A DNA stretch of 64,000 nucleotides from an uncultured Syntrophaceae bacterium (GCA_964547985.1 CAZJPV010000005.1:7755-71754); one strand, 5' to 3'. Counted from the stretch's first letter, positions 1-21,351 are shown. A program made the numbers and translations. Notes: generated by a model not told the origin, from the letters alone.

Positions 1-1407
1 CGGCGCCTCGCCCTTGTTGAAGTACCACCGGACCATCCCCTTGATGTCCTGGAGGTCCTTCAGGTTCGGGAAGAGCGAGTCGGGGCCGATCAGACGGCCG
101 AACCACCCCCTCTTACCCTCGCCCCTGGGGAAGAGGAACCGGAGGGATTCCAACGTGACATAGGCCATCCCGACGATCAGCAGGAAGGCCGCACTGCGGT
201 GTAAAAGCCCTGCCACATGCGCCCCACCCCAGAGTCGGGTGAGCGTCTCCGCCCACTCCGTGCCCGCATACTTCAGGGGGAACCCGGTCAGCACGAGCGT
301 AAAGAAGGACAGCACCAGCAGCACGTGCATGATCCGGTACTTGACGGAGAAGCGCTCCACCTGCTGGAGTCCCTCGCCCGTCGCGACCACGGAGGGCAGC
401 ACGATCCCTTCTATCTCCATGCGGTGGTGTTCCCAGTAGACCTTCCGCCACCACAGGACAGTATGTAACCAGAAAAAGGCGAGCGTCCCGACGAGAAGCC
501 CCCCCATGAGGAGGAACGTGAAGTACAAGGCAGGATACTTGGCCCGGTCTGTGTAATCCGGGTGGGCCTGGTAGCTCAGGAAACGGGGGTGGAAGCCCGT
601 GTGACAACGCCCGCAGTTCGCCTTCAGGTTGTCGGGGTGAATGCTCGAACGGGAATCTTTCTTCGGCAGGATGTTGTGCTTGGTGTGGCAGTCGCCGCAG
701 CCGGCCACCGGCGCCGGGTAGCCCAGTTCCTGGACCTTCCCGTGGTAGGTGCCCTCGTAGTAGGCGACCATCCTGTCGGAGAGGTTGTTTCGCTTCATCA
801 TGGCGCTGTCGGCATGGCAGTGCTTGCATTTCTGGGTGTAGAACTCCCGCGCCTCGGCCGGGTATTGTTCGAGCGAGATGTGGAACACGCGGGTGCTGTG
901 AAGGCTGTGGCAGTCGGAGCAGTCGGCGGCATCCTGGTTGCCCTTCAGGACGGCCTCGCCGTGGCCCGAGGCCGTGTAGTCCGGGTTGCCGTGGCACTCG
1001 GTGCACTTTTCGATGATGGCGATCTTGACGTTCTTGTTCTCGACCTTCCTGATCGCGTGAATGTTCAGGTGGCAGTCACTGCAGCGGAAGTCTTCCTGAA
1101 TGTAGTGGAAGTTGTTCTGGTATTCCTTCCCGATTTCCTGGTGGCAGCTCCCGCAATTGACGGGGGCGGGCTTTTCCTTGCCGTCGCGGTGATTCTCGAT
1201 GTTTGTGATCCCCACATGGCAACTTGTGCAGCCGTTGCTGGCGTGAATGGAATGATTGAAATCAAACCGGTAGAGCGGCTCGTCGTGGCAGAACCGGCAG
1301 TCCTGGGTTGCCCGGGCCTGGCCCGTCTGCAGGATGGCGAGACCCGCCGCCAGCACAATCAACCCCGCCAGGAGCACGCCTGACCGTCTCGCCTTGATGA
1401 ACTTCAT
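1..1407 (-). CDS. CbcL-like inner-membrane cytochrome: N-terminal nonaheme c-type domain fused to a C-terminal b-type (FdnI/HydC-like) membrane domain; 3' end runs off the window start
   Basis: Absent from the ORF track because it has no stop inside the window. The reverse frame from ATG 1407-1405 reads MKFIKARRSGVLLAGLIVLAAGLAILQ. Nine CxxCH motifs follow (CRFCH, CTSCH, CGSCH, CSDCH, CTECH, CSDCH, CKHCH, CGDCH, CGRCH; e.g. plus-strand gtggcagtcgccgca 685-699 = CGDCH). Then come His-containing hydrophobic helices (YFTFLLMGGLLVGTLAFFWLH, IMHVLLVLSFFTLVLTGF, VAGLLHRSAAFLLIVGMAYV). Listed ORFs 113..1006(-) and 562..1383(+) are Arg/Pro/Gly-rich shadow frames. Confidence 0.85.
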   Translation of the reverse strand, partial: MKFIKARRSGVLLAGLIVLAAGLAILQTGQARATQDCRFCHDEPLYRFDFNHSIHASNGCTSCHVGITNIENHRDGKEKPAPVNCGSCHQEIGKEYQNNFHYIQEDFRCSDCHLNIHAIRKVENKNVKIAIIEKCTECHGNPDYTASGHGEAVLKGNQDAADCSDCHSLHSTRVFHISLEQYPAEAREFYTQKCKHCHADSAMMKRNNLSDRMVAYYEGTYHGKVQELGYPAPVAGCGDCHTKHNILPKKDSRSSIHPDNLKANCGRCHTGFHPRFLSYQAHPDYTDRAKYPALYFTFLLMGGLLVGTLAFFWLHTVLWWRKVYWEHHRMEIEGIVLPSVVATGEGLQQVERFSVKYRIMHVLLVLSFFTLVLTGFPLKYAGTEWAETLTRLWGGAHVAGLLHRSAAFLLIVGMAYVTLESLRFLFPRGEGKRGWFGRLIGPDSLFPNLKDLQDIKGMVRWYFNKGEAP

Positions 1408-1438
1408 TCGTCTGCAACCTTCCATCCGAAATATCGAC

Positions 1439-2212
1439 CTATCCGTTCTTCCCCTGTATTTCCGCCCAGCCCTGCATCCCCTTGAAGAGCCTCATGACCC
1501 TGTAGCCCTTCGTTTCCAGGTAACTGCCCGCCAGGAAGGTCCGAAAGCCCCGGTCGTCGATGAGGACCACCGTGCGGTCCAACGGCATCTCGGCATAGCG
1601 GCGACTGAGGCGGTACAGCGGGATATTCACTGTGCCCTCGATGTGGCCCTCCTTGTAAGACTTCTCCGAGCGGACATCGACAAGGAGGATGTCGTCTCGC
1701 TCGACGAGCATCTGCTGCAGGGTCAATGCCCTCACGGCCGGGATCGAACCCCGCGGGATCCGCTCGATGCTTTCCATGGAATACCCTGCCTGCTTCCAGG
1801 CAGGCATTCCCCCGTTTAGAACGTGTACTTTACGGTAGCCGTATTGGATAGCTGCGCCGGCTGCCCGGCAGCTCCGGTAGCATCCCGCGCTTTCGCAGTA
1901 TAAGACGATGACCTGGTCCTTGTCGGCCGGGAGGACCGAGGGGCTTCTCTCGATCTCCTCGCAGGCCACGCACTGCGTGCCGGGGATGCGGTGATCGAGG
2001 CACTCGATCTCGCTCATCGTGTTGATCACGCTGATGTTCTTTCCCGCGGCCATCATGGCTTTGAGCGTCGGGGCGTCGATAACCTTCCAGGGCGGCGGTG
2101 CTTCCTGGGTCTTTCCGCAGGCCCAAAGTGCGGCAAGAAGGACAAACACTGCGGCGGACATGATCCACCCCGTGCGTCTTTTCGTGTCATGCTTCCGTTC
2201 CTTACGCGTCAT
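1439..2212 (-). CDS. Tandem-rhodanese-domain lipoprotein (domain 1 with Cys loop LYCESAGCYRS, domain 2 with Asp in place of Cys)
   Basis: 257-aa ORF with signal plus lipobox (LLAALWAC). It has two rhodanese-like halves ending in GGMPAWKQAGY and KGMQGWAE. GGAGG lies upstream of the ATG. Confidence 0.85.
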   Translation of the reverse strand: MTRKERKHDTKRRTGWIMSAAVFVLLAALWACGKTQEAPPPWKVIDAPTLKAMMAAGKNISVINTMSEIECLDHRIPGTQCVACEEIERSPSVLPADKDQVIVLYCESAGCYRSCRAAGAAIQYGYRKVHVLNGGMPAWKQAGYSMESIERIPRGSIPAVRALTLQQMLVERDDILLVDVRSEKSYKEGHIEGTVNIPLYRLSRRYAEMPLDRTVVLIDDRGFRTFLAGSYLETKGYRVMRLFKGMQGWAEIQGKNG

Positions 2213-2277
2213 CCTTCAACGCCTCCCCTTTAAAAATTAAGCCCTGAAAATTTAACTCGGTCCCCTGACCCCTGTTT

Positions 2278-4290
2278 TTACTCGCTCGCCGGCACCCCGG
2301 TGAACCCCCAATCCGCCATCTGGGGCTCCGCGACGGGCTCCTTCGGTATCGGGTAGCTGTCCTTGAGGAATTTTCCGACGCCCCGTACCTTGAGTTTCGT
2401 GAAGAAGGGCGCATTGTCGTCATGGCAGTCCTTGCATCCTTCGGGCTTTCCTTTCTGCCCCAGGGTCTTCTTGACCGACACGGGCAGGTTGCCGTGGTAG
2501 ATGGGATGCATCACAGCCTGTGTCAATGCCGGTGCAGGGCGGCCTTGGACCTTGTCCTTCTTGAGTTCATAGAGCTGGTCGGCCACGAAAACGACGTTCC
2601 GGAATCCCATGTCGGTCAGGGCCCGGATCATGAGGCGGATGTCCTCCTCGGTGGCCACTGTCGTCTGTTTTACCTTCTCGCCGGCGTGGGTGACGACCTC
2701 GACCGTCGTCAGCTTCCGGCCCGCGGCGGCGTTGCGCACATGCTCCAGGCCGATGGGCCTCACGATGCCCTCGGAGAGCATCTCGCCGAACCACTGCCTG
2801 ACTTTGGGTATGGACGGGACGTAACGCTCGCCGTTCCCTTTGACGCGCTCGTGGCGGTCCGTCCAGGGCTTCCAGAGCTCCGATGCGAACTGTTTCAGTT
2901 CATCCGGGCGGGTGACCAGGGCGGCCTTGTCCGTCGAGTACCAGGCGGGCCGTCCCGCGCTGTGGTCCACGAGATAGACGCTGCGGGTCTTCCGCTCCGA
3001 GGCGTGGCAGGCCGTGCAGTGAAGCAGGTAGAAATGGAAGGTTGCCTTGTGGAAGAGCGAGCGGTGGATATTGTCGGGGTTCTTGACCTCTTTCGGCATG
3101 CCGGGCCGGGTCGGCCTGTACTGCCCCTCGAGGTGGCAGGCCGCGCAGGTTTTCATCCCCGCGCCGTCGAGATCGTTGCGGGCCGTGGCCGTGGGTGACC
3201 AGCCCTTGCCGATGTGGTGCCGGAGACGCTCGGCCTGTGTCCTGCCGGCCAGGGTGTGGCAGTCGGTGCAGCGAAGTCCCGCCTTGAGATGGAGGTCTCC
3301 CGCGGGCAGGTAGAGGGTGCCCGACTTGCGGCTGTCCATATCGCGGTGGCACTGCGTGCAGCTGTCCGTCTCGACGGATTTGCTGATCAGGGTGTTTCCC
3401 CTGAACTTCCCCTCAAGCGTGAAGATCTTCCGGTCCTCCCAGGCGTACCGGACGGCCGGCCGGGTCGAGAAATTCCACGACCCTCTGTCGTAGCCTTCGA
3501 CGTCGGGACCGGCATCGGGATTATGGAAGGTGAAGACAGCACCCCGGACCTCGCCCAGCCCCGCGCCCGCGGTGGCGGCCCAGCGGTAGTTGCGGAGGCT
3601 CAGCTGACGGTTTCTCCGGTCGAGGCGATAGCCTCTCAGGTGGCACATGAGGCAGTCGCCCTCGATGACCCCGCTCGCCCGAAAATAGCTTCGTCCGTCG
3701 GGGGTGTAGCGGGAGGAGTAATCCCCGTCCAGGGGCAGGGGCCTCAGAGGCTCGCCATGGGTAAGGGTTTTCGAGAGATCACGCCTGCCGTCGGCTTTTC
3801 TGCCGAATTCCATGGGACCCCCGCCGGGATGGGTCCAGCCGGGTGCTGTGGAAATAACCTGGCCCTTGCTGCCGATCTTGCCGCCGGCGGTGATCCAGTC
3901 GTAGGTGGAAAGACCCATGTTGCGGGCAACGGCGTTTTTCTTCGCGGCGACCCGCCCGGTGAAGGTGCCCGGATCCCCTCCCTTGCCGAAGCTGCCGGGG
4001 GAGAGGATCCAGGGGCGTTTCGGGTCGTAGCCGCCTTTCATCTCGTCGAAACCCTGCTGGAAGTGCGTGCCCGACGTGATGGTCATGTATCCGTGGCAGG
4101 TCCCGCAGGTCTTGCGGGGTGAATAGGGGTCGGTGCTGTTTCTCGTGGGGGTGATGCGCTGCCCGTGCTCGTTCTTGAGCCAGATGTCCTCGTGCTTCCA
4201 GTCCGGCGCTCGCGCGGCATCGAGCGAAAGCGGCACGATCAGGACCAGAAGAAGGAGGATACAGGCTTTCTTGAACCGGCTCATGAGCAT
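2278..4290 (-). CDS. Secreted heptaheme c-type cytochrome with large non-heme regions (about 670 aa)
   Basis: Seven CxxCH motifs (CGTCH, CLMCH, CTQCH, CTDCH, CAACH, CTACH, CKDCH). Signal peptide MLMSRFKKACILLLLVLIVPLSLDAARA. The track start at 4341 is a TTG just after a terminator hairpin, so ATG 4290 (or 4284) is preferred. Confidence 0.85.
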   Translation of the reverse strand: MLMSRFKKACILLLLVLIVPLSLDAARAPDWKHEDIWLKNEHGQRITPTRNSTDPYSPRKTCGTCHGYMTITSGTHFQQGFDEMKGGYDPKRPWILSPGSFGKGGDPGTFTGRVAAKKNAVARNMGLSTYDWITAGGKIGSKGQVISTAPGWTHPGGGPMEFGRKADGRRDLSKTLTHGEPLRPLPLDGDYSSRYTPDGRSYFRASGVIEGDCLMCHLRGYRLDRRNRQLSLRNYRWAATAGAGLGEVRGAVFTFHNPDAGPDVEGYDRGSWNFSTRPAVRYAWEDRKIFTLEGKFRGNTLISKSVETDSCTQCHRDMDSRKSGTLYLPAGDLHLKAGLRCTDCHTLAGRTQAERLRHHIGKGWSPTATARNDLDGAGMKTCAACHLEGQYRPTRPGMPKEVKNPDNIHRSLFHKATFHFYLLHCTACHASERKTRSVYLVDHSAGRPAWYSTDKAALVTRPDELKQFASELWKPWTDRHERVKGNGERYVPSIPKVRQWFGEMLSEGIVRPIGLEHVRNAAAGRKLTTVEVVTHAGEKVKQTTVATEEDIRLMIRALTDMGFRNVVFVADQLYELKKDKVQGRPAPALTQAVMHPIYHGNLPVSVKKTLGQKGKPEGCKDCHDDNAPFFTKLKVRGVGKFLKDSYPIPKEPVAEPQMADWGFTGVPASE

Positions 4291-4351
4291 TCCCGAAGTT
4301 GAGTGCAACAGGACGAAAATATTTCGGTTCAGATAAGGCAAGGCATCTTGT

Positions 4352-4380
4352 GAAAACCCGGCACCCCGGAGGGTGCCGGG
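4352..4380 (-). terminator. Rho-independent terminator or attenuator between the rhodanese and heptaheme genes
   Basis: Perfect 10-bp stem cccggcaccc/gggtgccggg (4357-4366 / 4371-4380) with a 4-nt loop. On the minus strand it is followed by TTTTC (4356-4352). Confidence 0.7.
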
Positions 4381-4406
4381 ATCTGATCAGAACAGGTCAA
4401 ACAGGC

Positions 4407-5291
4407 TCAGGGCTCTGAGGGTGCGTTGGGGTCCGCCAGCCACTCCATGGAGGAACCGTCATAGACCTTTACGTTTTTGTAGCCCAGCAGGTCGGCGAGG
4501 GCCAGCCACCAGGTCGTGCAGATCTTGCCGGTGTCGCAGTAGGTGATGATCTCGCGGTTGAGATCGGCGCCCGCGATGGGCTTGGCGATGGCCTCGATCT
4601 CCGCCTTGCTCTTGTAGGTGCCGTCCGCGTTGTAGAGCAGGCCGGGCGGCAGGTTCACGGCACCCTTGATGCGGCCCGTCCTGGGCACGAAGTCGAGCTT
4701 CTTCTCGCCCTTGTAGAACTCCGGTGCCCGGACATCGACGAGCAGGGCCTTGCCCAGGGCACCCGTGACGTAGGCCTTGTTCACGAGGAACTGCTTGTTG
4801 AACTTGCCCCGGTAGGTCTTTGCCCTGGGCTTCACGGCGTCCTTCGAGAGGGCCTTCTTTTCCGCGGCCCATTTTTCAATGCCTCCGCTCAGGACGGCCA
4901 CGTTCTCCACGCCGGCGTACCTCAGGGTCCAGGCGACCCGTGTCGCGTCCGTGCGCAACGGGATGGTCTCGTTCTTGGAGACCACGACGACGGCCGTGGT
5001 GGGCTCGATGCCCGCCGACGACAGGATGTCACGCAGGTCGTCATCGGACGGCAGCTCGTTGAGAAGAACACCCTTCTTGATGCCCCAGACGCCGTAAAAG
5101 ACGTTGATGGCCCCGGGGATGTGGCCGGCGCTGTACTCTTCCACCTTCCGGACATCGAGGACCGTAACCTTGGAGAGATTGGCCTGGAGCCACTCCGTGG
5201 TGACGATCGGTTCTCCCGCGAATGCCGCCGCCGGCAGCAGCAGAACAACGGCCAGCAGACCTACCATGACTTTCATTTTCGCTGTAACCAT
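4407..5291 (-). CDS. Periplasmic two-domain rhodanese / thiosulfate-sulfurtransferase-like protein
   Basis: 294 aa with signal peptide (VGLLAVVLLLPAAAFA). The N-terminal domain is inactive and the C-terminal domain carries an active-site Cys loop (ITYCDTGKICT). It ends in VYDGSSMEW. AGGAGG lies 6 nt before ATG 5291. Confidence 0.85.
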   Translation of the reverse strand: MVTAKMKVMVGLLAVVLLLPAAAFAGEPIVTTEWLQANLSKVTVLDVRKVEEYSAGHIPGAINVFYGVWGIKKGVLLNELPSDDDLRDILSSAGIEPTTAVVVVSKNETIPLRTDATRVAWTLRYAGVENVAVLSGGIEKWAAEKKALSKDAVKPRAKTYRGKFNKQFLVNKAYVTGALGKALLVDVRAPEFYKGEKKLDFVPRTGRIKGAVNLPPGLLYNADGTYKSKAEIEAIAKPIAGADLNREIITYCDTGKICTTWWLALADLLGYKNVKVYDGSSMEWLADPNAPSEP

Positions 5292-5307
5292 ACAAACCTC
5301 CTTTTAT

Positions 5308-6560
5308 TTATTTGTTGATGGGTATGGGCTTTGGTTTATTGATCAGCTCCAGGTTCACCCTTGAGCTGTCCTTCAGGAGGGTTTCCATGGTGAGGAATCC
5401 CTTCCTGTCTTCGTGACAGTTATCGCAGTTGCGGGTCCTTTCCGTCCGCTTCCGGATGTTGTGGATCGGGGCGTCCCAGTAGTTCGGGAGGGCGTCGAAG
5501 TTTGCCTGCTGGATTCCCGCGGGCTTGAAGGTGTCGCGCACCGTGGGGATGATGCGCAGGGTCGTGATGGTCCTGTGATTTCTCGGGCTCGTCCCCAGGA
5601 AGAAACCCGGCTTCGCCTCGGAGTGCCCGTTGTGGCAGTTGTAGCACTGCCGGTATTCGCCGGCCGAGTGGCAGCTGAAGCAGCTGGCCGTCTGACTGTG
5701 CTTGAGGTGGGCCACGCGGGCCGTCAGTTTCGCCTCCCTGCCGCGCTCGTGGCAGTCGGTACAGCGCGGCCGGTCGCGGACCTCCTCCTTGAGAGCGTAA
5801 TCCCTGCCGTCACCGTGGAGCTCGTCCATGGTGTGGCAGTCCATGCACAGCATGCCCTTCTGGTAGTGGACGTCGGCGTTTCCACCGTATTCGCCCGTGT
5901 ACTCGGGGTAGACGCGTCCGCCGTGACAGTAAGCGCAGGTCTTGCCCTCGTCTTTTCGCACGAACTTGTGTTTGTTGATGAGACCCAGGCTCACCCCGGC
6001 GATAGCCGGTGACTTCACGTGGCAGTCTCCGCAGGAGGCATGACAGGCGTTGCAGGACTTTCGGAAGACCGTATCGTCGAAGATTTTTGCCTCTTCGACG
6101 GACATCCTTTTGATCACGCGGTTGCGCTGGCCGATGGTCGTATAATGAAGGGATTTTTTATAGTTCGCGGCGACCTCCTCGTGGCACTCACCGCAGACGG
6201 CCAGGTCACTGGAGGGGCGCTTCACCATCCCCTGGTGGGCGGCGTCCTTGTCATCCGCCTTTTCGTTTCCCTTGTGACAGTACAGGCAGCCCTTCTCGAA
6301 GTGATGGTCCGTTTCGACGAGTTTATGTCGACGAGGAACGTCAGGTGGAAGGTCTCCGCCTTGACCGGCGGAGGCGCCCCTGCTCACCCCTCTGCCTCGC
6401 CCACGGGCATGACGAAGGGCTTGCAGGTCTTCTTGAGCATGGACTCGTCGGTGTGACAGGTCACGCAGCTGCTGGGGTTATTGGCGGTGCTCGACACGGC
6501 CACGAACAGGCACCAGGACAGGAGACCAGCGATGACCGGAATGATGAGCCGTGCCTTCAT
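5308..6560 (-). CDS. Undecaheme c-type cytochrome, interrupted: signal peptide plus heme 1 (6387-6560), in-frame TGA at 6384-6386, then a frame change before heme 2; candidate selenoprotein, recoded gene or pseudogene
   Basis: ORF 5308..6387 has 10 CxxCH motifs but no signal peptide. An unlisted 58-codon ORF from ATG 6560 (MKARLIIPVIAGLLSWCLFVAVSS...CVTCH...GEAEG) supplies the signal peptide and an 11th heme motif, and stops at TGA. See findings for frame and GC3 details. Confidence 0.7.
6354..6373 (-). promoter_or_regulatory. SECIS-like hairpin (or frameshift-stimulating stem-loop) 17 nt downstream of the in-frame TGA
   Basis: On the minus strand: CTCCGCC GGTCAA GGCGGAG. This is a perfect 7-bp stem with a 6-nt loop starting GGUC. 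Confidence 0.45.
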
Positions 6561-6652
6561 GCGTCCTCATGCAGGAAAAAATTTGTGCCTATTTCAGCGT
6601 AGAAGAAAGATTTTTCAACCACCCGGGGTCGGTGGACCAGGGGTTCGCCTTG

Positions 6653-7204
6653 CTACATTTTCTTCACGCTCAGGTTGACGGTGCCCGTGTTCGAGGTGCC
6701 GGAAAGGGGCTTTCCCTTTGCGTCCGTGAGGGGTTTGTCTTCCAGCGTAGTCAGGGTGGCCGTCACGGATTTCTGCCCCGATTCGTCATAGCGGACCATG
6801 AAGGTCCGCACCCATTTTTCTCCGGGCTTGATCGCCTGGACCCGGTAGAACCGGGGCTCCGACTTTCTACCCGAGTCCACGTATTTGAGCCGGATGGGCT
6901 CGGATTTTTCCCTGCCGCAGTTCTCCACGGTCACGATGACGTTAATCCGCTTGCCGGGCCGCATCACGTGCGGACCCGGTCCCTCCAGGTTCAGTTTCTT
7001 TTCACTCTCCTGTATGAAGAATGGTCCGACCTTGACCTTGAGCTTGTTGCTCTCGGGACCCTCCCCGGCAGCGATAACATGTGCGACCATACCGAAGAGA
7101 AAGACCCCGGCCAGCATCAAGACGAGAAGAACTCTTCGCAAGACGCCTCTCCCGGGTGCGAGGTTTGTGGTCATCAATTTACAGAAAATGGTCGGGTTAG
7201 TCAA
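6653..7204 (-). CDS. Secreted or membrane-anchored hypothetical protein, beta-rich (Ig/CARDB-like guess)
   Basis: 183-aa ORF with an N-terminal hydrophobic anchor (VLLVLMLAGVFLFGMVAHVIAA). It is the first gene of the co-directional cytochrome/rhodanese block. No diagnostic motif was found. Confidence 0.55.
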   Translation of the reverse strand: MTNPTIFCKLMTTNLAPGRGVLRRVLLVLMLAGVFLFGMVAHVIAAGEGPESNKLKVKVGPFFIQESEKKLNLEGPGPHVMRPGKRINVIVTVENCGREKSEPIRLKYVDSGRKSEPRFYRVQAIKPGEKWVRTFMVRYDESGQKSVTATLTTLEDKPLTDAKGKPLSGTSNTGTVNLSVKKM

Positions 7205-7242
7205 TAGTATGATAATAGTGTTTCATCCCTTTTCATCGTCGG

Positions 7243-8094
7243 TTATGCCTTTGCCCAGCATTCGATCGCCTTCGGCGCCAGGGCGCGCCCCTGTTCATAG
7301 CCTTCCTGAAGGGCGCGACGGTTCTGGCTGAACCTTGAGACGCGGAAGTTCTGAGGCGGGCATATTTCAATGACTGACACGCCCTCCGGCGGTTTTCGGA
7401 TGAGGGCTACCGATTCATTGTAACGCTGTGCCCGTTTTGCCATCGTCTCCTGCAGCATGGGGCAGCGCCTTATATACCAGCGCATGATGAGTTCAAAGGG
7501 GCCGTTTCGCTTCAGGTAATCTCGGTGCTGCGAACGGATAACCATTATGCGGCGGGCGCCGCGCCGGATGGCCTCACTGACGGGGAGGGAGTCGGCCACG
7601 CCCCCGTCCGTCATCGGACGACCGTCGACGAAGGGGTAACCCCTGTAAAAGAGCGGTATGGAGCTGGAAGCCTTCAGGACGTGCTCGAGATCGCCGGCGC
7701 TCGTAAGCTTGTAGATTGCTTCTCCCGTCTGCACGTCGGTCAGAACCGCTATAAAGGGTTTCCCCCTGGAATAAATCGTTGCAAGGTCAAGACGGATTTC
7801 CCTGATGGTGGTCTCCCAGAGCCAGTCGAGGTCCATGAGGTGGCCGCCGCGGAGAAACCTGGGTATGCTGAGAAACTGCGGTTGCAGGGAGTAGTCCAGG
7901 TAGATCTTCCTGTTTCGCCCGATCATTTCGGCGAGATACGCCGCAAGGTTGGAGGCGCCCGATGAGACGCCGAAGAAAAGGTCGAAAGGGTTGAATCGCG
8001 CTTCCAGAAAGCCGTCCAGAAGCCCCGTGGAGAAGACCCCCCTGAGCGCGCCCCCTTCGACTACAAGAGCTGTGTTGGGTGATGGATGACTCAA
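7243..8094 (-). CDS. Patatin-like phospholipase
   Basis: Oxyanion GGALRG, nucleophile elbow GVSSG and catalytic MTDGG (Asp-Gly-Gly) motifs occur in canonical order. Confidence 0.9.
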   Translation of the reverse strand: MSHPSPNTALVVEGGALRGVFSTGLLDGFLEARFNPFDLFFGVSSGASNLAAYLAEMIGRNRKIYLDYSLQPQFLSIPRFLRGGHLMDLDWLWETTIREIRLDLATIYSRGKPFIAVLTDVQTGEAIYKLTSAGDLEHVLKASSSIPLFYRGYPFVDGRPMTDGGVADSLPVSEAIRRGARRIMVIRSQHRDYLKRNGPFELIMRWYIRRCPMLQETMAKRAQRYNESVALIRKPPEGVSVIEICPPQNFRVSRFSQNRRALQEGYEQGRALAPKAIECWAKA

Positions 8095-8350: not shown

Positions 8351-8782
8351 ATGGGATCGAAACAGAAAAAGACGCAACTGGGGCGGAAGGAATATTTCGA
8401 ACGGAAGCTGAAAGAGCGCCTGTCTTTCCTGTCTGAGAAGAAGACCGAACCTGCTGAAATCGAGAAGGACCCCCGTGCCAAGAACCTGCGCGCCAATATC
8501 CGGGCCGTTGATGCAAGACTGCAGGCGATAGCCAAGATCGAACAGCGGACGGCGGAAATGGCGAAGGCCAAGACGGAAAAGGCCGCGGCCGCCCTGAAGG
8601 CCAAGGAAGCAGGCGAAGAAAAGGAGAAGAAAGAAAAGGGAAAGGAAAAGAAGGAGAAGGGAGCAGAAAAGAAAGAAAAGAAAGAGAAGAAGGAGAAGGA
8701 GCCCAAGGCCCCGGAAGAAGGGAAGGAACAAAAGAAAAAGGAAAAGAAAGAGGTAAAGGAAGAAAAGGGGGAAAAGGAATAA
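8351..8782 (+). CDS. Lys/Glu-rich low-complexity protein (structured N-terminal half, KEKKEK tail)
   Basis: 143-aa ORF. The GAA/AAG-rich DNA generates F/S/L-rich antisense shadow ORFs (8269..8731). Confidence 0.55.
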   Translation: MGSKQKKTQLGRKEYFERKLKERLSFLSEKKTEPAEIEKDPRAKNLRANIRAVDARLQAIAKIEQRTAEMAKAKTEKAAAALKAKEAGEEKEKKEKGKEKKEKGAEKKEKKEKKEKEPKAPEEGKEQKKKEKKEVKEEKGEKE

Positions 8783-11136: not shown

Positions 11137-13506
11137 TCAGTATCCCCACCGGCCCGTGCAGTATGAAGTCCTGGTGCTTGGACCGCAAGAAATTGTTCCA
11201 CCGCCAGTAGGCCTGGATCCGGTGGACTTCAGAGTTCCTTTCAGGGTGCAGGATTTCATCTCAGCCCAGCACACACTATCCCGATAAATATAACATTCGG
11301 CCTTCGCGTTTAGTTGTCCCGATTCATCGACCTGACCCCTGATGCTGTAAATGGAAGACTGGAGATAATTGTAGAATTCCCCGTCCACCGTCCCATCACC
11401 GTGAATATTCATCTGGATGTGTCCCCCGGTCGCTACCGTGTTGCATGCAACCGATTTTGTCCCCGTTGGGTCCTTGATCGTTCCCTTGAGCTCGCTCCAG
11501 CCTCCGGAAAACGTACCAACAGGGTATTTTGGGGTTGTGCCGCCCGGTTTCGTTGTAGACGGAGGTTTGGATGAAGCTGTCGGTTTTTTGCCGGTCGGTT
11601 TTGTGGGCTGGGTCGGTTGGGTCGGTTGACTCGCACCGGCCGCGGCTGCCGCAGCGCCCAGAACCGCCTGTCCCAGCGCCTCACCTATCCTCCGCCCCGT
11701 TTCATAGTACTGTTTGTCCTTTTCCGACTTTTCCTTTCCTTTCGGCTCCTTTTCTTCAGCGGCCAGGCGGGCAAGCTGGCTCTTTGAACAGCCGCTCGCG
11801 TCCACCTGCTCGCTTGCAAGAAGGAGCGTGTAGGCGCACCGATCCTTGTCATCCGTGACCCCATCGCCGTCGGAATCGAGCTGGCTTGGCGCACAGCCAC
11901 TGGCGTCCACGAAGAGTTCTTTCGCATCCGTTCCGGGACAGATGTCTGCGTTGTCCTTTACACCATCATGATCCGAATCAAGCTGGCTTGGCGCGCAGCC
12001 TCTGTCATTCACGCTGGCCCTTTCTTCTGCTTTTGTCCCGGGGCAGTCATCCGCTTCATCCTTGACCCCGTCACCGTCCAAATCAAGCTGTCTTGGCGCA
12101 CAGCCACTGGCATCCACGAATTTCCGGTCTTCTGCTTTTGTCCCGGGGCAGTTGTCCAACCTGTCGACCACGCCGTCACCGTCGCTGTCGAGCTCAGGCT
12201 TTTCTTTTTCTTCTTTGGCGGTTTCGCCGGGTTTCTTGTCAACGGATTTTTTGATTTTCTCCAGTCTTTTGTTCAAAAGACTCAACTCATATTCAATCCG
12301 CTTTCTTGCCTCGGGGTCGGTCGTTGCCTTCCACTGACGGTCGAGGTCTGTGATCCTGTCCCCAATCTTTTCGGAAGGAAGGTTCAAGACGCGCTCTTCG
12401 GCTCCCTTTTGCTCAGCTTTTTGGAGGTCCGACTGTTTTTTTGACAGGAGTTCTATTTCGTACTCGATTCTTTTTCTTGTGTCGGAGTCTGTCGTCGTTT
12501 TCCGCAGACGGTCGAGTTCTGTAATCCTTTTGTTAATCTTGTCGGGCTGAAGGTTCCGTGCACGTTCTTCTGTCTGCCTGAGGCGTATTTCCTCCGCGCG
12601 CCTGTGAATCTCCTGTTTGTCCTTTTCTGAAAGCTGGCGGGAAATTGGCAAAGATTCCAGACGCCAGCCATAGTCCCTTCTTTCTTTGTCCAGGTATAAA
12701 ATACGATCAACATCGATACCCTTAGCATACGGTGTGTTTCTAAGCAGCATCAGGTCTGTACGCAACCTTCTGCAATCGTTTTCCGTCTTTTCCAGATAGT
12801 CCGTTATCTTCTGTGAAGCTGCGTCCGCTGTTTTGTCAACGATGGGTTTTCCGTATTTATCGTAGCCATATGCTCCTCCGACGGCTCCCGCAACAGCGCC
12901 GACCCCCCCACCCACGACGGCACCGGGAGGGCCGCCCAGGGCACCCCCAACTACGGCGCCTCCCTTGGCTCCCGCCCAGGCTCCTGCAGTCGCGGCCACT
13001 CCACTCAGGGAATCATTCGCAAGGGCCTGGGCCGCGCCCGTTCCATCTCCGTAGATCAGGGATACGCCGGCCTCCTCATAAGCCAGGGCTGAGTCGCCAT
13101 AATCCAGATACTTTCCCGCAGTCTCGAGTGTTTTGGCATACTCATGAATATTCCCCGGGAGTTGCCTGTAGATCTTATGGACGTTTTCCGGGTGAGTTTC
13201 CTTTATAAGGTTTTTGACTGTCTCCCGAGATTGGTAACGGCCGGCTGCATCCTTGATGGCATCACCCGCGCTGTAGGCGGGTCCCAGCCATTCATTCATC
13301 CCGTCCAACGTGTCCATAACTCCATCCAAGGTGGTCGAAGGGAGCGGCTGCAATTTTCCATCAGGGGTCCTGCCTCGCAGATCCCTTTGTTGACTGAACC
13401 CGCTACCCGATGCGGATGATATACCAATGGCAAGCAAGCCGATACTGACACAGGCAAGCAGTATCACCAGATTGTGAAATCTTATGGTCAGGACAGGATA
13501 TTTCAT
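11137..13506 (-). CDS. Large secreted protein: glycine-zipper segment, duplicated coiled coil, thrombospondin-type-3 Ca-binding repeats, P/T linker and C-terminal beta domain
   Basis: 789 aa. Glycine zipper GAVVGGALGGPPGAVVGGGVGAVAGAVGG. Repeated DxDGDGVxDxxDxCPGT...VDxxGC modules. QPTQPTQPTKPT linker. Confidence 0.8.
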   Translation of the reverse strand: MKYPVLTIRFHNLVILLACVSIGLLAIGISSASGSGFSQQRDLRGRTPDGKLQPLPSTTLDGVMDTLDGMNEWLGPAYSAGDAIKDAAGRYQSRETVKNLIKETHPENVHKIYRQLPGNIHEYAKTLETAGKYLDYGDSALAYEEAGVSLIYGDGTGAAQALANDSLSGVAATAGAWAGAKGGAVVGGALGGPPGAVVGGGVGAVAGAVGGAYGYDKYGKPIVDKTADAASQKITDYLEKTENDCRRLRTDLMLLRNTPYAKGIDVDRILYLDKERRDYGWRLESLPISRQLSEKDKQEIHRRAEEIRLRQTEERARNLQPDKINKRITELDRLRKTTTDSDTRKRIEYEIELLSKKQSDLQKAEQKGAEERVLNLPSEKIGDRITDLDRQWKATTDPEARKRIEYELSLLNKRLEKIKKSVDKKPGETAKEEKEKPELDSDGDGVVDRLDNCPGTKAEDRKFVDASGCAPRQLDLDGDGVKDEADDCPGTKAEERASVNDRGCAPSQLDSDHDGVKDNADICPGTDAKELFVDASGCAPSQLDSDGDGVTDDKDRCAYTLLLASEQVDASGCSKSQLARLAAEEKEPKGKEKSEKDKQYYETGRRIGEALGQAVLGAAAAAAGASQPTQPTQPTKPTGKKPTASSKPPSTTKPGGTTPKYPVGTFSGGWSELKGTIKDPTGTKSVACNTVATGGHIQMNIHGDGTVDGEFYNYLQSSIYSIRGQVDESGQLNAKAECYIYRDSVCWAEMKSCTLKGTLKSTGSRPTGGGTISCGPSTRTSYCTGRWGY
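11780..12200 (-). repeat. Tandem coding repeats (about 99-105 bp units) encoding TSP3-like calcium-binding modules
   Basis: The string gacggcgatgg/gacggtgacgg (DGDG) recurs with conserved CPGT and DASGC spacing four to five times. Confidence 0.75.
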
Positions 13507-14609
13507 TTTCTGTTTTTGGGGGGAGTTTTGTTCATACTTTGTCCGCGTTTGTAGAAGCCGTTGTAATCGATCACATCCATTCTTTTAAGACGCAGTTCTT
13601 CGCTTTGCCCATCGAAGAAGAGGCTGATACTTCCGGATGCATCATATACCGGCACCAGGAAAACAAGGAAGCCGTCTTTGCCGACTACGAAGGCCACGGC
13701 TTCCATGGACTGAAACTGAGCCGGAGCCATATTTCTCAGAATTTTTTTCGTGGCGGGGAGGGTTTCTTTCGCCGATTGGAGAAGGTCTGTCATTCGACCC
13801 TGCGCAGCCGATTTTATGGTGTCAATCGTTTTGTTTCGGCAGGACTCCATGTGAGGGTTGTTTTTCCCGGCGAAGCGAAAATTATCCATTGCCTTCAAGG
13901 AGGAATAGAGCCTCACAGCAATCATTGGGTAGTTTACATCATTCAGCAGTCGCTGGTCGCTCAGGACGATCGATTTGTGGCGCCAGTTGTCCACAGAAAC
14001 ATCTGAAAAAGTATATTCGAACGACTTTACGGCCTCGGCAAGACTCATGCCCAATGCTGCGGGTTTGAAAAGGTCGCTTCTTAGCCAAGCCGGCGTATAG
14101 CTCAGCACGGAATCCTTGCGGATCCAATCCCCCAAGATCATTTCTGCATCTACGATCCTCGGAATCTCACCTGCTATGTCCCACACCGTGAGGAGGAATA
14201 CATCACTCCAGGGATTGTAAAAGGACACAAGAGGATGATTCGATCCTGAACTTCCCACCGTGTGAACGGATACGCTCATGAAATAGGACCATCCTGCAAG
14301 GGGTGCTGTTTGAATCCAGATCTTTTCGTCAAAGATCCTGAATTTCTGAATTGCTGCGTCTTCTGCAAACAGGAAAAGGGCATCCCTGTAATCTCTCATA
14401 CAGACCTGCCTGAAATAATTGACGGAGGTCAAAAGTCTCGTCATTCGGACGTAATCTGGTTTGGAGATTTTGGCAGAGGAAACTCTATTTTCTTTCGAGG
14501 ACTTTTTGCTTGAGGCGGCTTGGCAGAAAGGGGCGGCAAAAAGGAATGCCGCAAGAACGACAAGGATAACGGGAAGGTATCGAACCGATCTTGAAGAAAA
14601 GATCTTCAT
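13503..14609 (-). CDS. Secreted hypothetical protein, translationally coupled to the TSP3-repeat protein
   Basis: 368-aa ORF with signal peptide (LPVILVVLAAFLFAAPFCQA). Its stop overlaps the downstream start (ATGA at 13503-13506). Confidence 0.7.
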   Translation of the reverse strand: MKIFSSRSVRYLPVILVVLAAFLFAAPFCQAASSKKSSKENRVSSAKISKPDYVRMTRLLTSVNYFRQVCMRDYRDALFLFAEDAAIQKFRIFDEKIWIQTAPLAGWSYFMSVSVHTVGSSGSNHPLVSFYNPWSDVFLLTVWDIAGEIPRIVDAEMILGDWIRKDSVLSYTPAWLRSDLFKPAALGMSLAEAVKSFEYTFSDVSVDNWRHKSIVLSDQRLLNDVNYPMIAVRLYSSLKAMDNFRFAGKNNPHMESCRNKTIDTIKSAAQGRMTDLLQSAKETLPATKKILRNMAPAQFQSMEAVAFVVGKDGFLVFLVPVYDASGSISLFFDGQSEELRLKRMDVIDYNGFYKRGQSMNKTPPKNRK

Positions 14610-15112
14610 ACCCGCTCCTTCAGGTGAGTAGTCGTAAAATACCAGATTGAAAGGGCTAATGCAAAGGATATTAGCCGCTAAGAATTTGTGCCAGGCTTTG
14701 AGTATTTGATATTGCTCGTAGTGAGAAGCACAAGCTGTCTATAAACTTCTTCCTGGGCTCGCTAAAAAATTTTGTTCCAGATGCAAGATTACAATCATTC
14801 ATCGGCAAAAATAATTTCTTTTTTTGACCTGCAATTCGATCCTTGACATCATTTTTCCAATCCATTACAAAATAAACGTTGTCTTGTCGGTCTCTAACAA
14901 ACCAGTCAGCTTATACATGATGGGGAGCCTTGAGCGAGCTATGAAACCCTGCTTTCGGTTGAAGGCGGGGTTTTTATAATTCAGAATGCAGGGGGGACTA
15001 TAAAAAATCTTCTTTGGTCGGTTATCATTTCCTTTACAGTTTTTGGTTCCGGCTGCTCAGTTTTATGGCCGCATAACAACCTGATTTGAAAAATATAGAA
15101 GGAAATGCAAAA

Positions 15113-15496
15113 ATGACGGGCTATGTTGGAAACATCGAGAAACAGACATTGAAGAACAATTATTTCAGAAAGGTTTTGTTCACTGCTAAGAATGCTCAAC
15201 TGGTTGTAATGTGCCTTCAACGCGGAGAGGAAATTGGAGACGAGGCTCACCATGATATAGACCAGTTCTTCAGGCTTGAACAGGGTGAGGCGAAATTCAT
15301 CTTCAATAAAAAAGAGGAACATGTAGTCCATGATGGCGAGGCGGTTATTGTCACAGCAGGTACCTTTCACAACGTGATAAACACCGGAAGGGGACGGCTG
15401 AAGCTGTATACTATATATTCACCGCCAAACCACCCTGACGGCACGGTTCACAAGACCAAAGCCGAAGCAGATAAAGCTGAAGAGGAGCATCGTTGA
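15113..15496 (+). CDS. Cupin-domain protein
   Basis: Cupin motifs (GEEIGDEAHHDIDQFFRLEQGEA ... GTFHNVINTG). The track start at 15086 is TTG, so ATG 15113 is preferred. Confidence 0.85.
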   Translation: MTGYVGNIEKQTLKNNYFRKVLFTAKNAQLVVMCLQRGEEIGDEAHHDIDQFFRLEQGEAKFIFNKKEEHVVHDGEAVIVTAGTFHNVINTGRGRLKLYTIYSPPNHPDGTVHKTKAEADKAEEEHR

Positions 15497-15574
15497 AGCT
15501 GCTTGTGAATGTTATTGGTAGATAGGCAGGCTGACTGAGTACGTCTGATGGAAACCAGGGAAAGGAGGTATTCA

Positions 15575-16009
15575 ATGTTTCATAGAGGAAGCAACAACAT
15601 TTTATTCGCATTAGCTGTCATTGCCGGGGTTCTTCTCATGAATGCCTGTGCGGCAATGAACCAGCAGACAAACAAAGGAGATACCACCATGGAAGCTGTC
15701 CGAATTTCGCCGCAGGATACTTATCAGCAGGTGACATCAGGAAGAGCTATATTAGTCTGTTCCTATGATAAGAAAACATGCAGCAAGATGATGTTAGAGG
15801 GTGCCATTACGCGTGAAGAGTTTCAGTCGAAACTGCCCAGTATTTCCAAGAGCCAGCCAATTATTTTTTATTGTGCCTGACACGAGGAACACACCTCTGC
15901 CGGTCAGGCAGTGAAATATACGAAAATGGGATATACCAATGTTAAGGCGCTGCACGGCGGCGTTGAGGCTTGGAAAAAGGCAGGGTATAAACTTGTAGGC
16001 GATAAATAA
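15575..16009 (+). CDS. Single-domain rhodanese lipoprotein with an in-frame TGA (15878-15880) in the catalytic loop; candidate selenoprotein
   Basis: AGGAGG lies 7 nt before ATG 15575, and the lipobox is VLLMNAC. The track ORF stops at IIFYCA-TGA. The same frame continues HEEHTSAGQAVKYTKMGYTNVKALHGGVEAWKKAGYKLVGDK-TAA (16007-16009). That stretch is the conserved C-terminal part of a rhodanese domain, and a terminator follows. Confidence 0.7.
15897..15911 (+). promoter_or_regulatory. SECIS-like hairpin downstream of the rhodanese TGA
   Basis: CTGCC GGTCA GGCAG: perfect 5-bp stem with loop GGUCA. The loop starts 21 nt after the TGA. Confidence 0.45.
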
Positions 16010-16050
16010 GAAGCGACCTGGTTGCTAACCGTTGGGTCAGGAAAGAAAAA

Positions 16051-16084
16051 AGGCAGAGCCGTTTCTGGCTCTGCCTTTCTGTTC
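16051..16084. terminator. Bidirectional rho-independent terminator between the convergent rhodanese and cspA genes
   Basis: 10-bp stem aggcagagcc/ggctctgcct (16051-16060 / 16067-16076). An A-run lies upstream and TTCTGTT downstream. Confidence 0.75.
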
Positions 16085-16152
16085 AAATTAAAGAGGCACA
16101 TCAGAGCATGAAAAAAACAGATTGAAGTACCTCTTCCTTACCGCTCATGCGC

Positions 16153-16353
16153 TTATAAAAGTTTCACGTTCTCGGCTGCCGGGCCTTTCTGACCCTGCAC
16201 AACGTCGAAGCTGACACGCTGGCCTTCACTAAGCGTCTTGAAACCAGCGGCTTGAATAGAAGTGTGATGAACGAACAGATCACCACCGTCATCTTTTTCG
16301 ATGAACCCGAAGCCTTTCTTGTCGTTGAACCATTTTACTTTGCCTTCTGACAT
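16153..16353 (-). CDS. cspA: Cold-shock protein (CspA family)
   Basis: [33 protein letters not shown] carries the RNP1 (KGFGFI) and RNP2 (VFVHH-like) motifs. The AGGAGG spacing fits the second ATG (16353). Confidence 0.93.
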
Positions 16354-16851
16354 CGCTTGCATCCTCCTTTCATAGAATTCTATTTAAGTCGGATTTCCAC
16401 AATGACAGAAAGAAAAAGGCCACCGAGACTCTAAAGAGCATGATGGCCAGCCTTTGCACTTCAAAATGTCTTAATCCATACTTATTTAGTGCTGGAAATT
16501 TACGATGTCTCTTATCGAAAGTCAAGGATTATTCTTTAATTATTTCAATAACTTTTATTATGAGATTCAGGAGCTTTTGCAGGGGAAGGGGGGAGGCACA
16601 CGGCGGCAAATCCACTATTGGGGCAGACCATAGTCCGAAAGTTGATAGATAGATGGAGTTTGGCGATCACAGGAAATCGTTGAGGTTCCCGTGAGTGCAA
16701 AATGACCCCGCTGCTTCTACATAAATAAAAATATATTATCTTGACTTCATGCAATTTGAGAGTAGCATATATATAAATCAAAGTAATTGACACTGGATCT
16801 GCAGCTTATCTCTCCTTTCCCCTTATAGGGGTCATAATTTGGTAATTGAAA

Positions 16852-16881
16852 CCCTGTCTTTTACAGAAGACGGGGTTTTTT
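16852..16881 (+). terminator. Orphan rho-independent terminator, possibly the 3' end of a small RNA
   Basis: 9-bp stem (ccctgtctt / aagacgggg, one G-U pair) with a 6-nt loop, followed by TTTTTT. No credible plus-strand CDS ends upstream. Confidence 0.5.
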
Positions 16882-17030
16882 GTTTCTTCTTAAAAGCTAT
16901 TTTTACAGTTGAACGTGATCAACACGCTAGGGCGTGGCACCAACGTCTCCTATTTACTCTGAACATACGGCTTTGAGGAACAGTTCCTAACGCGATTAAC
17001 GCAAATCTCTCAGCAGAAAGAAGGGCCAGG

Positions 17031-17345
17031 ATGAAGGTACATTTAATCGATAAATTCAATGATTTTAACAATCTGCATGATAATGTATGGGAATGCGGAT
17101 GGTGGAAATTGAAAGAAGACAAGGCTCAAGAGCTCGTCGGGAGTGAAATTTATTTTCACAAAAAGCGATTGGAACCGTCTTTTTATGGCGGGACGATAGT
17201 GGGATACAGAATAGAGCAGGAGGGACTACACCAGGGGGGCACTGTTTTCGAATTCCAGTATAGTCACGCATCCAGAAATGTCAGGACGAATAAATATGGC
17301 TGGTCCAGAGAAATGAAGATCATAGAAGAACCGGAACAGAAATAG
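17031..17345 (+). CDS. Hypothetical protein (104 aa), low-GC island
   Basis: ATG-started ORF with balanced composition. No motif was recognised. Confidence 0.45.
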   Translation: MKVHLIDKFNDFNNLHDNVWECGWWKLKEDKAQELVGSEIYFHKKRLEPSFYGGTIVGYRIEQEGLHQGGTVFEFQYSHASRNVRTNKYGWSREMKIIEEPEQK

Positions 17346-17453
17346 CCGCCGGAACGGATGCCGGGTTACCCAGGAGACTGATCGGCAAGGCCAGGCATCC
17401 ACAATAATATAGCGAACCTTTTTCAGGAATAATGACACGAGGTACAAAAGTTT

Positions 17454-17660
17454 ATGGCTGTTGTTTTGTCGGGCTACGAAAATGAGACGATGGTTCATCT
17501 GGATTCCGCAGGGATATCAACGGGGGTGCAAGAGAGATTACCCGAAAAAGTGTCCCGGGTTTTTGAGACGATCCTTGAGGAACTACAGATGAACGTCAGT
17601 ACAAGGAAATATCGAGACCTTTACGTGAGCGAAGGTCTCTTGTGGGGCACGAAAAGGTAA
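17454..17660 (+). CDS. Hypothetical small protein (68 aa)
   Basis: ORF only. Confidence 0.3.
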   Translation: MAVVLSGYENETMVHLDSAGISTGVQERLPEKVSRVFETILEELQMNVSTRKYRDLYVSEGLLWGTKR

Positions 17661-17681
17661 TCCAGCGGGAAGGGAAATACC

Positions 17682-17873
17682 ATGATTAAAATTTCTCAGG
17701 GACTCCCGATGAGGAAACTAAATATGGAATCCGCAATCATCAGCGCCTTCAATCGTTATTTCGAGGGTGGAAGCGCTGGAGAAAAGGCGGGAATACTTAA
17801 GGCGTCTCTCATGGATGCCCAGACAAAATATTTTCAGAAGAAAATCTGGTCAGTCCCGACGCTTCAAAAGTGA
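17682..17873 (+). CDS. Hypothetical small protein (63 aa)
   Basis: ORF only. Confidence 0.3.
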   Translation: MIKISQGLPMRKLNMESAIISAFNRYFEGGSAGEKAGILKASLMDAQTKYFQKKIWSVPTLQK

Positions 17874-17981
17874 TGGACCGGCCTCTTGCAGAAAGGTTGC
17901 GTGTGGGGAGACGGTCTATACCCTCATAGTCACTGGCAGTGTTTTTCAAAATCATCATGTCGGAAACAAGGATAAAAAGCT

Positions 17982-18338: not shown

Positions 18339-18552
18339 TAGTCATTCATGGAAAGGCAAAAAACCGTTTGGCCTCTTTCGTCTATAGGGTCTGTTTGGTC
18401 CATCCGGATTATTCAAGGGTGTTTAAATCCATCTCATTCTTTCCGGGTCTTTCCAGGAGAAGATTCCGGAATTCCGTGGAAGACTTCATTATCGATGTCT
18501 GAAGAGATGAAAAGAGATACATCCCCACCTATACGTCCCCCCGGGAACTGTC

Positions 18553-19911: not shown

Positions 19912-20010
19912 AATGAGGGAAATCTCGGAGGCCGGCTTTGCTCATTTGATATCAGAGAAGAAATTACAGGGGATCCTCTTGTAACCACACCCCGCAAATC
20001 CCCAGTGTTT

Positions 20011-21310: not shown

Positions 21311-21351
21311 CAGGCAATAGTGCAATGAAAGTAAATGTGAGGTCGATACCT

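Follow-up and report, generated by a model that had tools for sequence, protein, structure and literature searches.

A predicted selenocysteine codon in an undecaheme cytochrome gene paired with a tandem rhodanese gene in Syntrophales and other bacteria, and a frame break in one lineage

Positions 1 to 7204 of a 64,000-nucleotide stretch of DNA from an uncultured Syntrophaceae bacterium (GCA_964547985.1 CAZJPV010000005.1:7755-71754; the whole stretch is called the window below) hold a row of six minus-strand genes, g1 to g6, in which multiheme cytochromes are accompanied by rhodanese-family proteins. The second gene, g2 (5308-6560), encodes a multiheme cytochrome in two segments of different frame, and an in-frame TGA in it (6384-6386) is predicted to be a selenocysteine (Sec) codon, U59, with a hairpin resembling a selenocysteine insertion sequence (SECIS) downstream. 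Together with the tandem rhodanese gene g3 it appears to form the core of a module that is conserved across phyla and is a candidate for periplasmic sulfur reduction. Sequence evidence supports the genes, their order and conservation, the Sec codon, the SECIS, the cysteine-containing homologues, the rhodanese cysteines and the CbcL-like architecture of g6; the reading of substrate and chemistry draws on other grounds, given below.

An earlier note on this DNA had described co-directional minus-strand genes in the order secreted beta-rich protein, 11-heme cytochrome, two-domain rhodanese, 7-heme cytochrome, rhodanese lipoprotein and cytochrome c/b fusion, with 27 CxxCH motifs and with neither a molybdopterin subunit nor a porin gene. 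The gene coordinates bear out this order, the motif count was reproduced (1+10 in g2, seven in g4, nine in g6), and Pfam searches of the cluster and of 10 kb on either side of it revealed no gene for a molybdopterin subunit or a porin. The 11-heme cytochrome had been taken for one open reading frame (ORF) and is in fact split by the TGA and by a change of frame. The main feature, a predicted selenoprotein gene with UGA and SECIS as the first cytochrome, had been overlooked, and the frameshift of g2 in this genome had been missed.

The 5' segment of g2 (6387-6560) comprises 58 codons, encoding a signal peptide, the motif of heme 1 (CVTCH, 6453-6467) and a run that ends in PVGEAEG ahead of the TGA. 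Read on without a shift, the frame downstream of the TGA gives AGAPPPVKAETFHLTFLVD, and the remaining ten heme motifs begin after approximately position 6323, in the -1 frame relative to the 5' segment (3' segment, 5308-6323). Gene callers split g2 alike on six metagenome contigs, into products of 58 and 306 aa. The 5' segment aligned with the N-termini of full-length homologues, and approximately 95% of the 120 g2 homologues listed are annotated at about 345 aa, with a start directly after AGAPPPVK, i.e. after the UGA. Seven of the listed homologues are full-length, and where the TGA would stand they have R, S, W, A, Y, A or R.

One genome per species was scanned for the g2 locus, yielding 80 loci, and the window's own locus makes 81. 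The hosts were mostly metagenome-assembled genomes of Syntrophales and Smithella; Nitrospirota, Desulfuromonadales, Geobacteraceae and Syntrophorhabdales were also represented. A TGA stood at the same column of the motif (E/G)G-TGA-AG(A/P)PP(P/S/A)V in 80 of the 81 loci. The exception, locus L024, has CGA and also lacks the adjoining tandem rhodanese gene. Outside the window, the frame runs on across the site into the heme domain in all 80 loci, in 79 via TGA and in L024 via CGA. A profile search of 1.8 billion representatives recovered more distant full-length relatives, and when the UGA was masked as X, three of these distant homologues (P0375, P0397 and P0413) aligned a Cys at that column. 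No Cys was found there within the close g2 family. Re-initiation at a GTG overlapping the TGA was considered and rejected, because its product would have no signal peptide and would be unable to receive heme.

The hairpin (6354-6373, CUCCGCC-GGUCAA-GGCGGAG in the window) has a conserved, GC-rich core of 6 bp (6-7 bp), which begins 11 nt past the UGA and follows the consensus CUCCGCC-NGUNNN-GGCGGAG. Across 76 distinct sequences, pairing was kept in 96-100% at five core pairs and in 82% at the sixth (columns 19-28). Compensatory double changes occurred at two pairs, and the loop residues G22 and U23 were invariant. Wobble positions of the codons inside the stem had entropies of 0.28, 0.38, 0 and 0 bit, as against 1.1-1.9 bit before the stem, in the loop and after the stem, and stem column 27 was G whether the codon was for K, R, S, T, P or Q. 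Since wobble bases were frozen in the stem only, the constraint acts on the RNA and not on the protein. The minimal SECIS of Escherichia coli fdhF has the same 11-nt spacing and a GU loop. An Rfam search gave nothing at the gathering threshold in the whole window and chance-level matches alone at E<=10 in positions 1-8000, so no curated bacterial SECIS model was matched. The conserved in-frame TGA, the hairpin constrained at the RNA level and the Cys homologues are the standard criteria for bacterial selenoproteins, and because they are found together here we read g2 as a predicted selenoprotein gene with its own SECIS.

Close-family members with another residue at the Sec site (P0011, P0031, P0039, P0057, P0060, P0095 and P0097, and also L024 with its CGA) never carried Cys. 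These Arg, Ser, Trp, Ala and Tyr members may be functional variants or copies that have lost activity, and the Trp case may be an artefact of the translation table.

Eleven CxxCH motifs were present in 78 of 80 reconstructed members of the g2 family. Across the 80 members nine non-motif (distal) His, one Met and four Lys were conserved, the His invariantly, and there was no conserved additional Cys. As eleven motifs are set against nine invariant His, at least one heme is probably ligated in an unusual way.

Conservation of the neighbourhood, which the earlier note had proposed as a check, was assessed by tblastn of the window proteins against the 80 loci. The g3 gene lay directly downstream of g2 in 54 of the 69 loci having at least 1.5 kb of flank. 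Among the 46 loci with at least 7.5 kb of flank, g3-g4-g5-g6 followed in order in 26, one of these genes was missing in 5, only g3 was present in 11, and none in 4. In the short form, seen in Nitrospirota and Desulfuromonadales, the cytochrome-rhodanese pair is placed amid unrelated genes. Because the pair recurs in loci without g4 to g6, we take the predicted Sec-cytochrome and the tandem rhodanese to be the core unit, with g4, g5 and g6 as a Syntrophales extension. Two g2 relatives lacking both Sec and Cys had no rhodanese neighbour, although this sample is small.

The Cys-type relative P0397 belongs to a compact four-gene operon (L087:220-3135) encoding an ArsR-family regulator, an 11-heme cytochrome, a cytochrome b and a rhodanese lipoprotein. 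The separate cytochrome b matched PF01292 at 74 bits, and a catalytic Cys is present in the rhodanese lipoprotein. Different genes thus supply the same three functions here, and by its gene content the operon resembles a minimal form of the module. Its regulator contains several Cys and its cytochrome has a C-terminal hydrophobic tail; the operon may be controlled by a sensor of the metalloid or persulfide type. Near g2 relatives at two other loci there are pairs of small membrane proteins of the YeeE/YedE sulfur-transport type, at L090:10155-11210 (a PF04143 match) and at L039:8868-9912 (recognised by eye only), a further hint of a sulfur connection.

The g3 gene (4407-5291) encodes a periplasmic tandem rhodanese with a signal peptide, which matched Pfam Rhodanese (PF00581) at 117 bits in two stretches. 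Its N-terminal domain is without Cys, and the catalytic loop of its C-terminal domain reads YCDTGKIC. The earlier note had named rhodanese orthologues without a catalytic Cys as evidence that would speak against a sulfane-sulfur pathway; in g3 the loop YC[DN][TS]G[KR] was kept in 60 of 60 orthologues. The g5 gene (1439-2212) encodes a two-domain rhodanese lipoprotein (lipobox LWAC; Pfam Rhodanese, 92 bits, two stretches) with a Cys in the N-terminal domain (LYCESAGC) and Asp in place of Cys in the C-terminal domain (LIDDRG). The conserved part of g5 is the Cys-less C-terminal domain, and the Cys-bearing N-terminal domain is absent in some relatives. Sec-containing forms of g5 (LYCAU-type) were considered in relatives and rejected: low tblastn coverage reflected loss of the N-terminal domain and not an in-frame TGA.

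The two other cytochromes could serve in electron transfer. The g4 gene (2278-4284) encodes a secreted heptaheme cytochrome of 668 aa with a large non-heme beta-rich domain; it has seven CxxCH motifs, eight invariant non-motif His and no additional invariant Cys, a predicted ligation as expected for an electron carrier. Its 234 homologues are all unnamed, and it showed no similarity to any sequence in the Protein Data Bank (PDB). The g6 gene (1-1410) encodes a CbcL-type fusion of a nonaheme c domain with a b-type membrane domain and is cut by the window edge, which leaves 470 of 621 aa; the full-length protein was taken from locus L001, and identical public metagenome contigs extend past the edge. 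Nine CxxCH motifs lie in the periplasmic domain, six hydrophobic segments follow the c domain, three of them with His, and the full-length L001 protein matched PF01292 at 32.9 bits against a cut-off of 30.1. The combination of rhodaneses with a CbcL-like c/b fusion recognised in the earlier note was in this way recovered, with the catalytic Cys, the nine motifs, the PF01292 match and the six segments all found.

These cytochromes also raise the question of a general periplasmic electron-export chain for extracellular or direct interspecies transfer, with the rhodaneses and Sec accessory or protective and not catalytic. Geobacter CbcL feeds low-potential extracellular acceptors (PMC9129911, PMC6148476), the cluster encodes 27 hemes, g4 with eight invariant His for seven hemes is compatible with bis-His ligation, and the hosts are syntrophs. 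However, no porin or outer-membrane cytochrome was found in the cluster or its flanks, and the tightest conserved unit is cytochrome plus rhodanese and not cytochrome plus quinol module. Sec codon, SECIS and rhodanese Cys are kept across phyla, which is hard to square with a simple wire, and we hold electron export to be improbable.

We lean, with slightly more confidence than doubt, towards the cluster being a periplasmic, molybdenum-independent respiratory module for the quinol-fed reduction of rhodanese-bound sulfane sulfur, analogous but not homologous to MccSep. MccSep is the ExtKL protein (GSU2937-2936) of Geobacter sulfurreducens, a pentaheme selenoprotein needed for respiration of elemental sulfur (S0), in which Sec acts together with a Cys-ligated heme to reduce polysulfide and also selenite, polysulfide being preferred approximately sevenfold (PMC13510729). 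In the proposed module g6 would take electrons from menaquinol at the inner membrane, and its nine c hemes, probably with the heptaheme g4 as well, would pass them to the undecaheme g2, which would carry Sec between heme 1 and heme 2. The rhodaneses g3 and g5 would bind sulfane sulfur (polysulfide or S0-derived persulfide, possibly a selenium analogue) on their catalytic Cys and present it to g2. The U59 selenolate would then attack the bound sulfur, and the hemes would reduce the Se-S adduct to sulfide. We infer substrate, direction of electron flow and the part of Sec as nucleophile from gene composition, co-conservation and the MccSep precedent. A molybdenum-independent route from quinol to sulfane sulfur or selenium had been put forward in the earlier note; that part is plausible in the light of MccSep/ExtKL (PMC13510729), although the note had arrived at it without Sec or the frameshift.

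Several points weigh against this respiratory reading. Of the 46 loci with long flanks, 11 contain g2 and g3 without a dedicated quinol module and 4 contain g2 alone. Under standard conditions the reduction of polysulfide by menaquinol runs uphill, which leaves it uncertain in which direction the electrons flow. MccSep needs the Cys that ligates heme 2, whereas the g2 family has no conserved heme-ligating (non-motif) Cys, and the chemistry of MccSep is therefore not simply transferable. Arg, Ser, Trp, Ala or Tyr in place of Cys at the Sec site of g2 variants is unusual for an essential catalytic residue. AlphaFold2 models (mean predicted local distance difference test score, pLDDT, 52 for g4; pLDDT 48 for the full-length g2-family protein P0039) were of too low quality to show where Sec lies with respect to a heme. 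In this genome g2 is frameshifted, and the substrate is a putative one, assigned by analogy.

The best NCBIfam matches turn attention to chalcogen oxyanions, as they are members of the Geobacter 'selenite/tellurite reduction operon'. The g2 protein matched ExtN, ExtO and ExtM (NF040967, NF040968 and NF040943) at 37-42 bits (E ~1e-9 to 1e-11, ~230 residues), and ExtH (NF040901) was matched by g3 at 74 bits and by g5 at 16.5 bits. With cut-offs of 200-800 bits for ExtN/ExtO/ExtM and 200 for ExtH, all of these scores are far too low; g2 is not a member of its matched families, and neither g3 nor g5 qualifies as ExtH. Moreover, rhodaneses are carriers of sulfane sulfur. Little selenite is present in the methanogenic habitats where Syntrophales live. 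Deletion of extI impairs both selenite and tellurite reduction (PMC5877670), and MccSep also reduces selenite, but with its preference for polysulfide its physiological role is S0 respiration (PMC13510729). We regard a selenite or tellurite reductase, or a detoxification system, in place of sulfur respiration as unlikely.

The electrons might also flow the other way, with the rhodanese stripping the sulfane sulfur from thiosulfate, or with sulfide or persulfide being oxidised, and exchange with the quinone pool. The His/Cys-heme enzymes TsdA and SoxAX act oxidatively (PMC13510729). CbcL-type proteins might in principle be reversible. Tandem rhodaneses of the SseA/TST type use thiosulfate or mercaptopyruvate, and g3 scored 93 bits, below the cut-off of 250, against NF008557. 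Yet the hosts live strictly anaerobically and no high-potential acceptor is evident in them, the cluster has no Sox, Dsr or Sqr gene, and the reduction of thiosulfate to sulfite and sulfide is too low in potential for quinol. An oxidative or thiosulfate-linked function thus seems to us quite improbable.

A bolder form of the respiratory reading is offered tentatively, and we consider it doubtful. The g2 family would represent a second, independently evolved class of Sec-dependent multiheme reductases, in which the selenolate either ligates a heme or reacts in trans with the rhodanese persulfide, the rhodanese is an obligatory half of the active site, and zero-valent sulfur serves syntrophic Desulfobacterota and some Nitrospirota as a hitherto unrecognised electron sink. 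If the rhodanese Cys-persulfide contributed the second chalcogen in trans, this would account for the strict pairing of g2 and g3.

The frame break (6321-6326) was characterised by DNA comparison over L007-L019 with the nine closest relatives, which are 81-88% identical overall to the query. These read GTC GAC AGA/CGC AAG CTC GTC where the window reads GTC GAC ATA AA- CTC GTC, i.e. one substitution and one deleted base, 22 codons past the UGA. Only the window and L001 are out of frame; all other loci are in frame. The deletion is common to three haplotypes (six public contigs) that lie 0-3 single-nucleotide polymorphisms apart in 12 kb, and since all three carry it, a random assembly error is unlikely. 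Sec read-through alone, with no frameshift, would yield a product of 112 aa with one heme. Programmed -1 frameshifting was considered and rejected as unlikely, since GAC-ATA-AAC contains no X XXY YYZ heptamer and other lineages do not have the break.

No additional stop interrupts the 3' segment, and its ten CxxCH motifs are all intact. Its identity to the nearest unbroken relatives (L007-L015) is 84-89%, and no other gene of the cluster is as well conserved against relatives (89%), so that any decay must be very recent. The deletion is probably a very recent inactivating mutation in this strain, making g2 a recent pseudogene here. As it comes after the Sec codon, the strain probably has a module that is inactive or has only begun to decay. 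Taken further, the whole cluster of this genome would be a decaying remnant in which the TGA is a plain stop and the frameshifted cytochrome a functionless pseudogene. Given the lineage-specific deletion, the missing slippery heptamer and the one-heme read-through product we judge this probable for the genome at hand, although a consensus error in a low-diversity population might conceivably account for the break and the remainder of the gene is so well kept. It concerns the strain and not the family, as the other 80 loci keep the frame.

At the upstream end of the row, g1 (6653-7174, with an ORF reaching 7204) encodes a small secreted or anchored, CARDB-like, beta-rich protein of 173 aa from the ATG, which was called at the same length on independent contigs and matched Pfam CARDB at 22.2 bits, slightly below the cut-off of 22.7. 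Past the window edge, a 43-aa ORF comes after g6, then the gene for another CARDB-like protein, of 147 aa (g8), and then a ThiF gene on the opposite strand. CARDB-like proteins hence bracket the cluster on both sides, the 43-aa ORF and the secreted 147-aa protein with its weak CARDB match lying at L001:12685-13309. No similarity was detected between g1 and g8, neither is conserved with the cluster, and by tblastn g1 is absent beside the cluster in most relatives. Gaps between the genes of the cluster measure 16-122 nt. Promoter and terminator scans stayed at chance level, with no minus-strand terminator-like site within the cluster.

The sole molybdopterin oxidoreductase gene of the window (PF00384, 38423-40474) is 31 kb away, among Fe-S and aldehyde-oxidoreductase genes, and its product has no obvious export signal. 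It is part of a minus-strand run of redox genes (35205-48195) with a short AFOR-like protein (N-terminal domain only, 437 aa), a poly-ferredoxin, an HdrA/GltD-like flavoprotein with Fe-S and a full-length aldehyde:ferredoxin oxidoreductase (45617-47452). The AFOR-like ORF (35205-36518) was considered as a second selenoprotein and rejected, as it ends at a normal stop with nothing in frame beyond. The window that contains the 27-heme cluster also encodes, on its plus strand (49776-52060), the ResB and CcsA proteins of system II cytochrome c maturation.

Elsewhere, positions 14000-22000 have a G+C content of 0.44-0.51, against approximately 0.6 in the flanks, few long ORFs and an N6/N4 DNA methylase gene (20276-21118), and may be a foreign island. 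A plus-strand ORF (8351-8782) between patatin and PDZ/TPR genes encodes a Lys/Glu-rich, highly charged, low-complexity product and contains tandem repeats of 21-30 nt (8620-8699). On the minus strand, a 789-aa protein (11137-13506) has repeated Asp-rich DxDGDGV motifs and a faint thrombospondin type-3 match on public contigs, and its gene carries an internal tandem duplication of 105 nt (11972-12183). A PAS-domain histidine kinase gene (61707-63416, minus strand) contains a 429-nt tandem duplication (62445-63283, 74% match), so that PAS modules have been duplicated. No tRNA gene was found in the window.

If the selenoprotein reading is true, current annotation truncates a selenoprotein in hundreds of Syntrophales, Smithella and Nitrospirota genomes, and since the annotated start follows the UGA, the selenoproteome and heme-protein inventories of these genomes would be wrong. 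If the functional reading holds as well, a second, non-homologous family would share the Sec and multiheme polysulfide-reductase chemistry described in 2026, a sign that selenium was recruited convergently to cleave S-S bonds on heme scaffolds, and the company of rhodaneses with such cytochromes would be accounted for. It would also provide a sulfur-linked electron sink in syntrophs, which are classically seen as relying on H2 or formate transfer, and would bear on cryptic sulfur cycling in methanogenic sediments and digesters. Intact g2 orthologues occur in cultivated genera (Syntrophus gentianae).

A May 2026 review (PMC13188914) lists just three selenoprotein families with heme motifs: NF040886 (MccSep/ExtKL), NF041027 (the GSU2204 family) and TIGR04315 (octaheme tetrathionate reductase). 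NF040886 gave no match to g2, and NF041027 and TIGR04315 gave none at E<=1 for reconstructed g2, P0039 or P0031. MccSep itself (9wt8/9wt9, present in the PDB sequence library) showed no match to g2 or g4 by phmmer or profile at E<=10. The g2 family accordingly matches none of the three and is apparently undescribed. Our literature search, which left most subscription journals outside its coverage, returned no description of the family or the cluster, in Syntrophales or otherwise. The earlier note had not recognised the arrangement as any described system; the family and cluster are apparently unreported, whereas the concept of a Sec multiheme reductase beside a rhodanese has been published for a non-homologous protein (PMC13510729). 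Nor do the cytochromes belong to a nitrite or hydroxylamine family, an assignment that note had seen as damaging to its proposal, or to the tetrathionate family: in comparisons with NrfA, HAO and octaheme enzymes no CxxCK was found, and only local heme-motif similarity to NrfA was seen (E 0.005-0.01, ~60 residues).

MccSep/ExtKL and g2 have much in common. Each is a periplasmic multiheme cytochrome c with one UGA-encoded Sec (predicted for g2) and a downstream SECIS hairpin, and each gene stands beside one for a rhodanese-family protein, with no molybdopterin subunit; that of MccSep adjoins the rhodanese lipoprotein ExtH in the extHIJKL cluster (PMC6148476, PMC13510729). The differences are equally clear. 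MccSep has five hemes and the g2 family eleven, and Sec lies near the N-terminus in GEG-U-AGAPPPV in g2, as opposed to the DGUP loop of a C-terminal Ig domain in MccSep. The ExtKL cluster includes an ExtI-type porin and the g2 cluster has none. MccSep is proven to reduce polysulfide and, more weakly, selenite, while the same function is only proposed for g2.

Sulfur respiration in Wolinella succinogenes offers a second comparison, as its periplasmic rhodanese-type carrier Sud hands polysulfide sulfur to the quinol-linked terminal reductase Psr. The likeness is one of proposed function. Sud is a single-domain rhodanese and g3 a tandem one, and Psr is a molybdopterin enzyme with an NrfD-type anchor, where a heme/Sec protein and a cytochrome b/c fusion are proposed here. 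No catalytic subunit of the Psr/Phs type (PF00384) was found in the cluster or its flanks. Porin-cytochrome conduits of the Mtr, Pcc or Ext kind differ too, since no outer-membrane barrel gene stands beside the cytochromes within +/-10 kb, and no outer-membrane beta-barrel Pfam family was matched among the called genes over that distance.

The quinol module invites comparison with CbcL, a nonaheme c domain fused to a b-type membrane domain (PMC9129911). CbcL and g6 share nine periplasmic CxxCH motifs and a fused b-type domain with six hydrophobic segments (PF01292). The g6 family holds more than 2,400 proteins, labelled 'cytochrome C' or 'formate dehydrogenase cytochrome b subunit', and g6 is likened to CbcL by its architecture, GSU0274 not being among the best 120 of these homologues. 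Coupling to a CbcL-type protein within one operon sets the g2 cluster apart from MccSep/ExtKL, and while Geobacter CbcL feeds PpcA and extracellular acceptors, g6 shares its operon with rhodaneses and a predicted selenoprotein.

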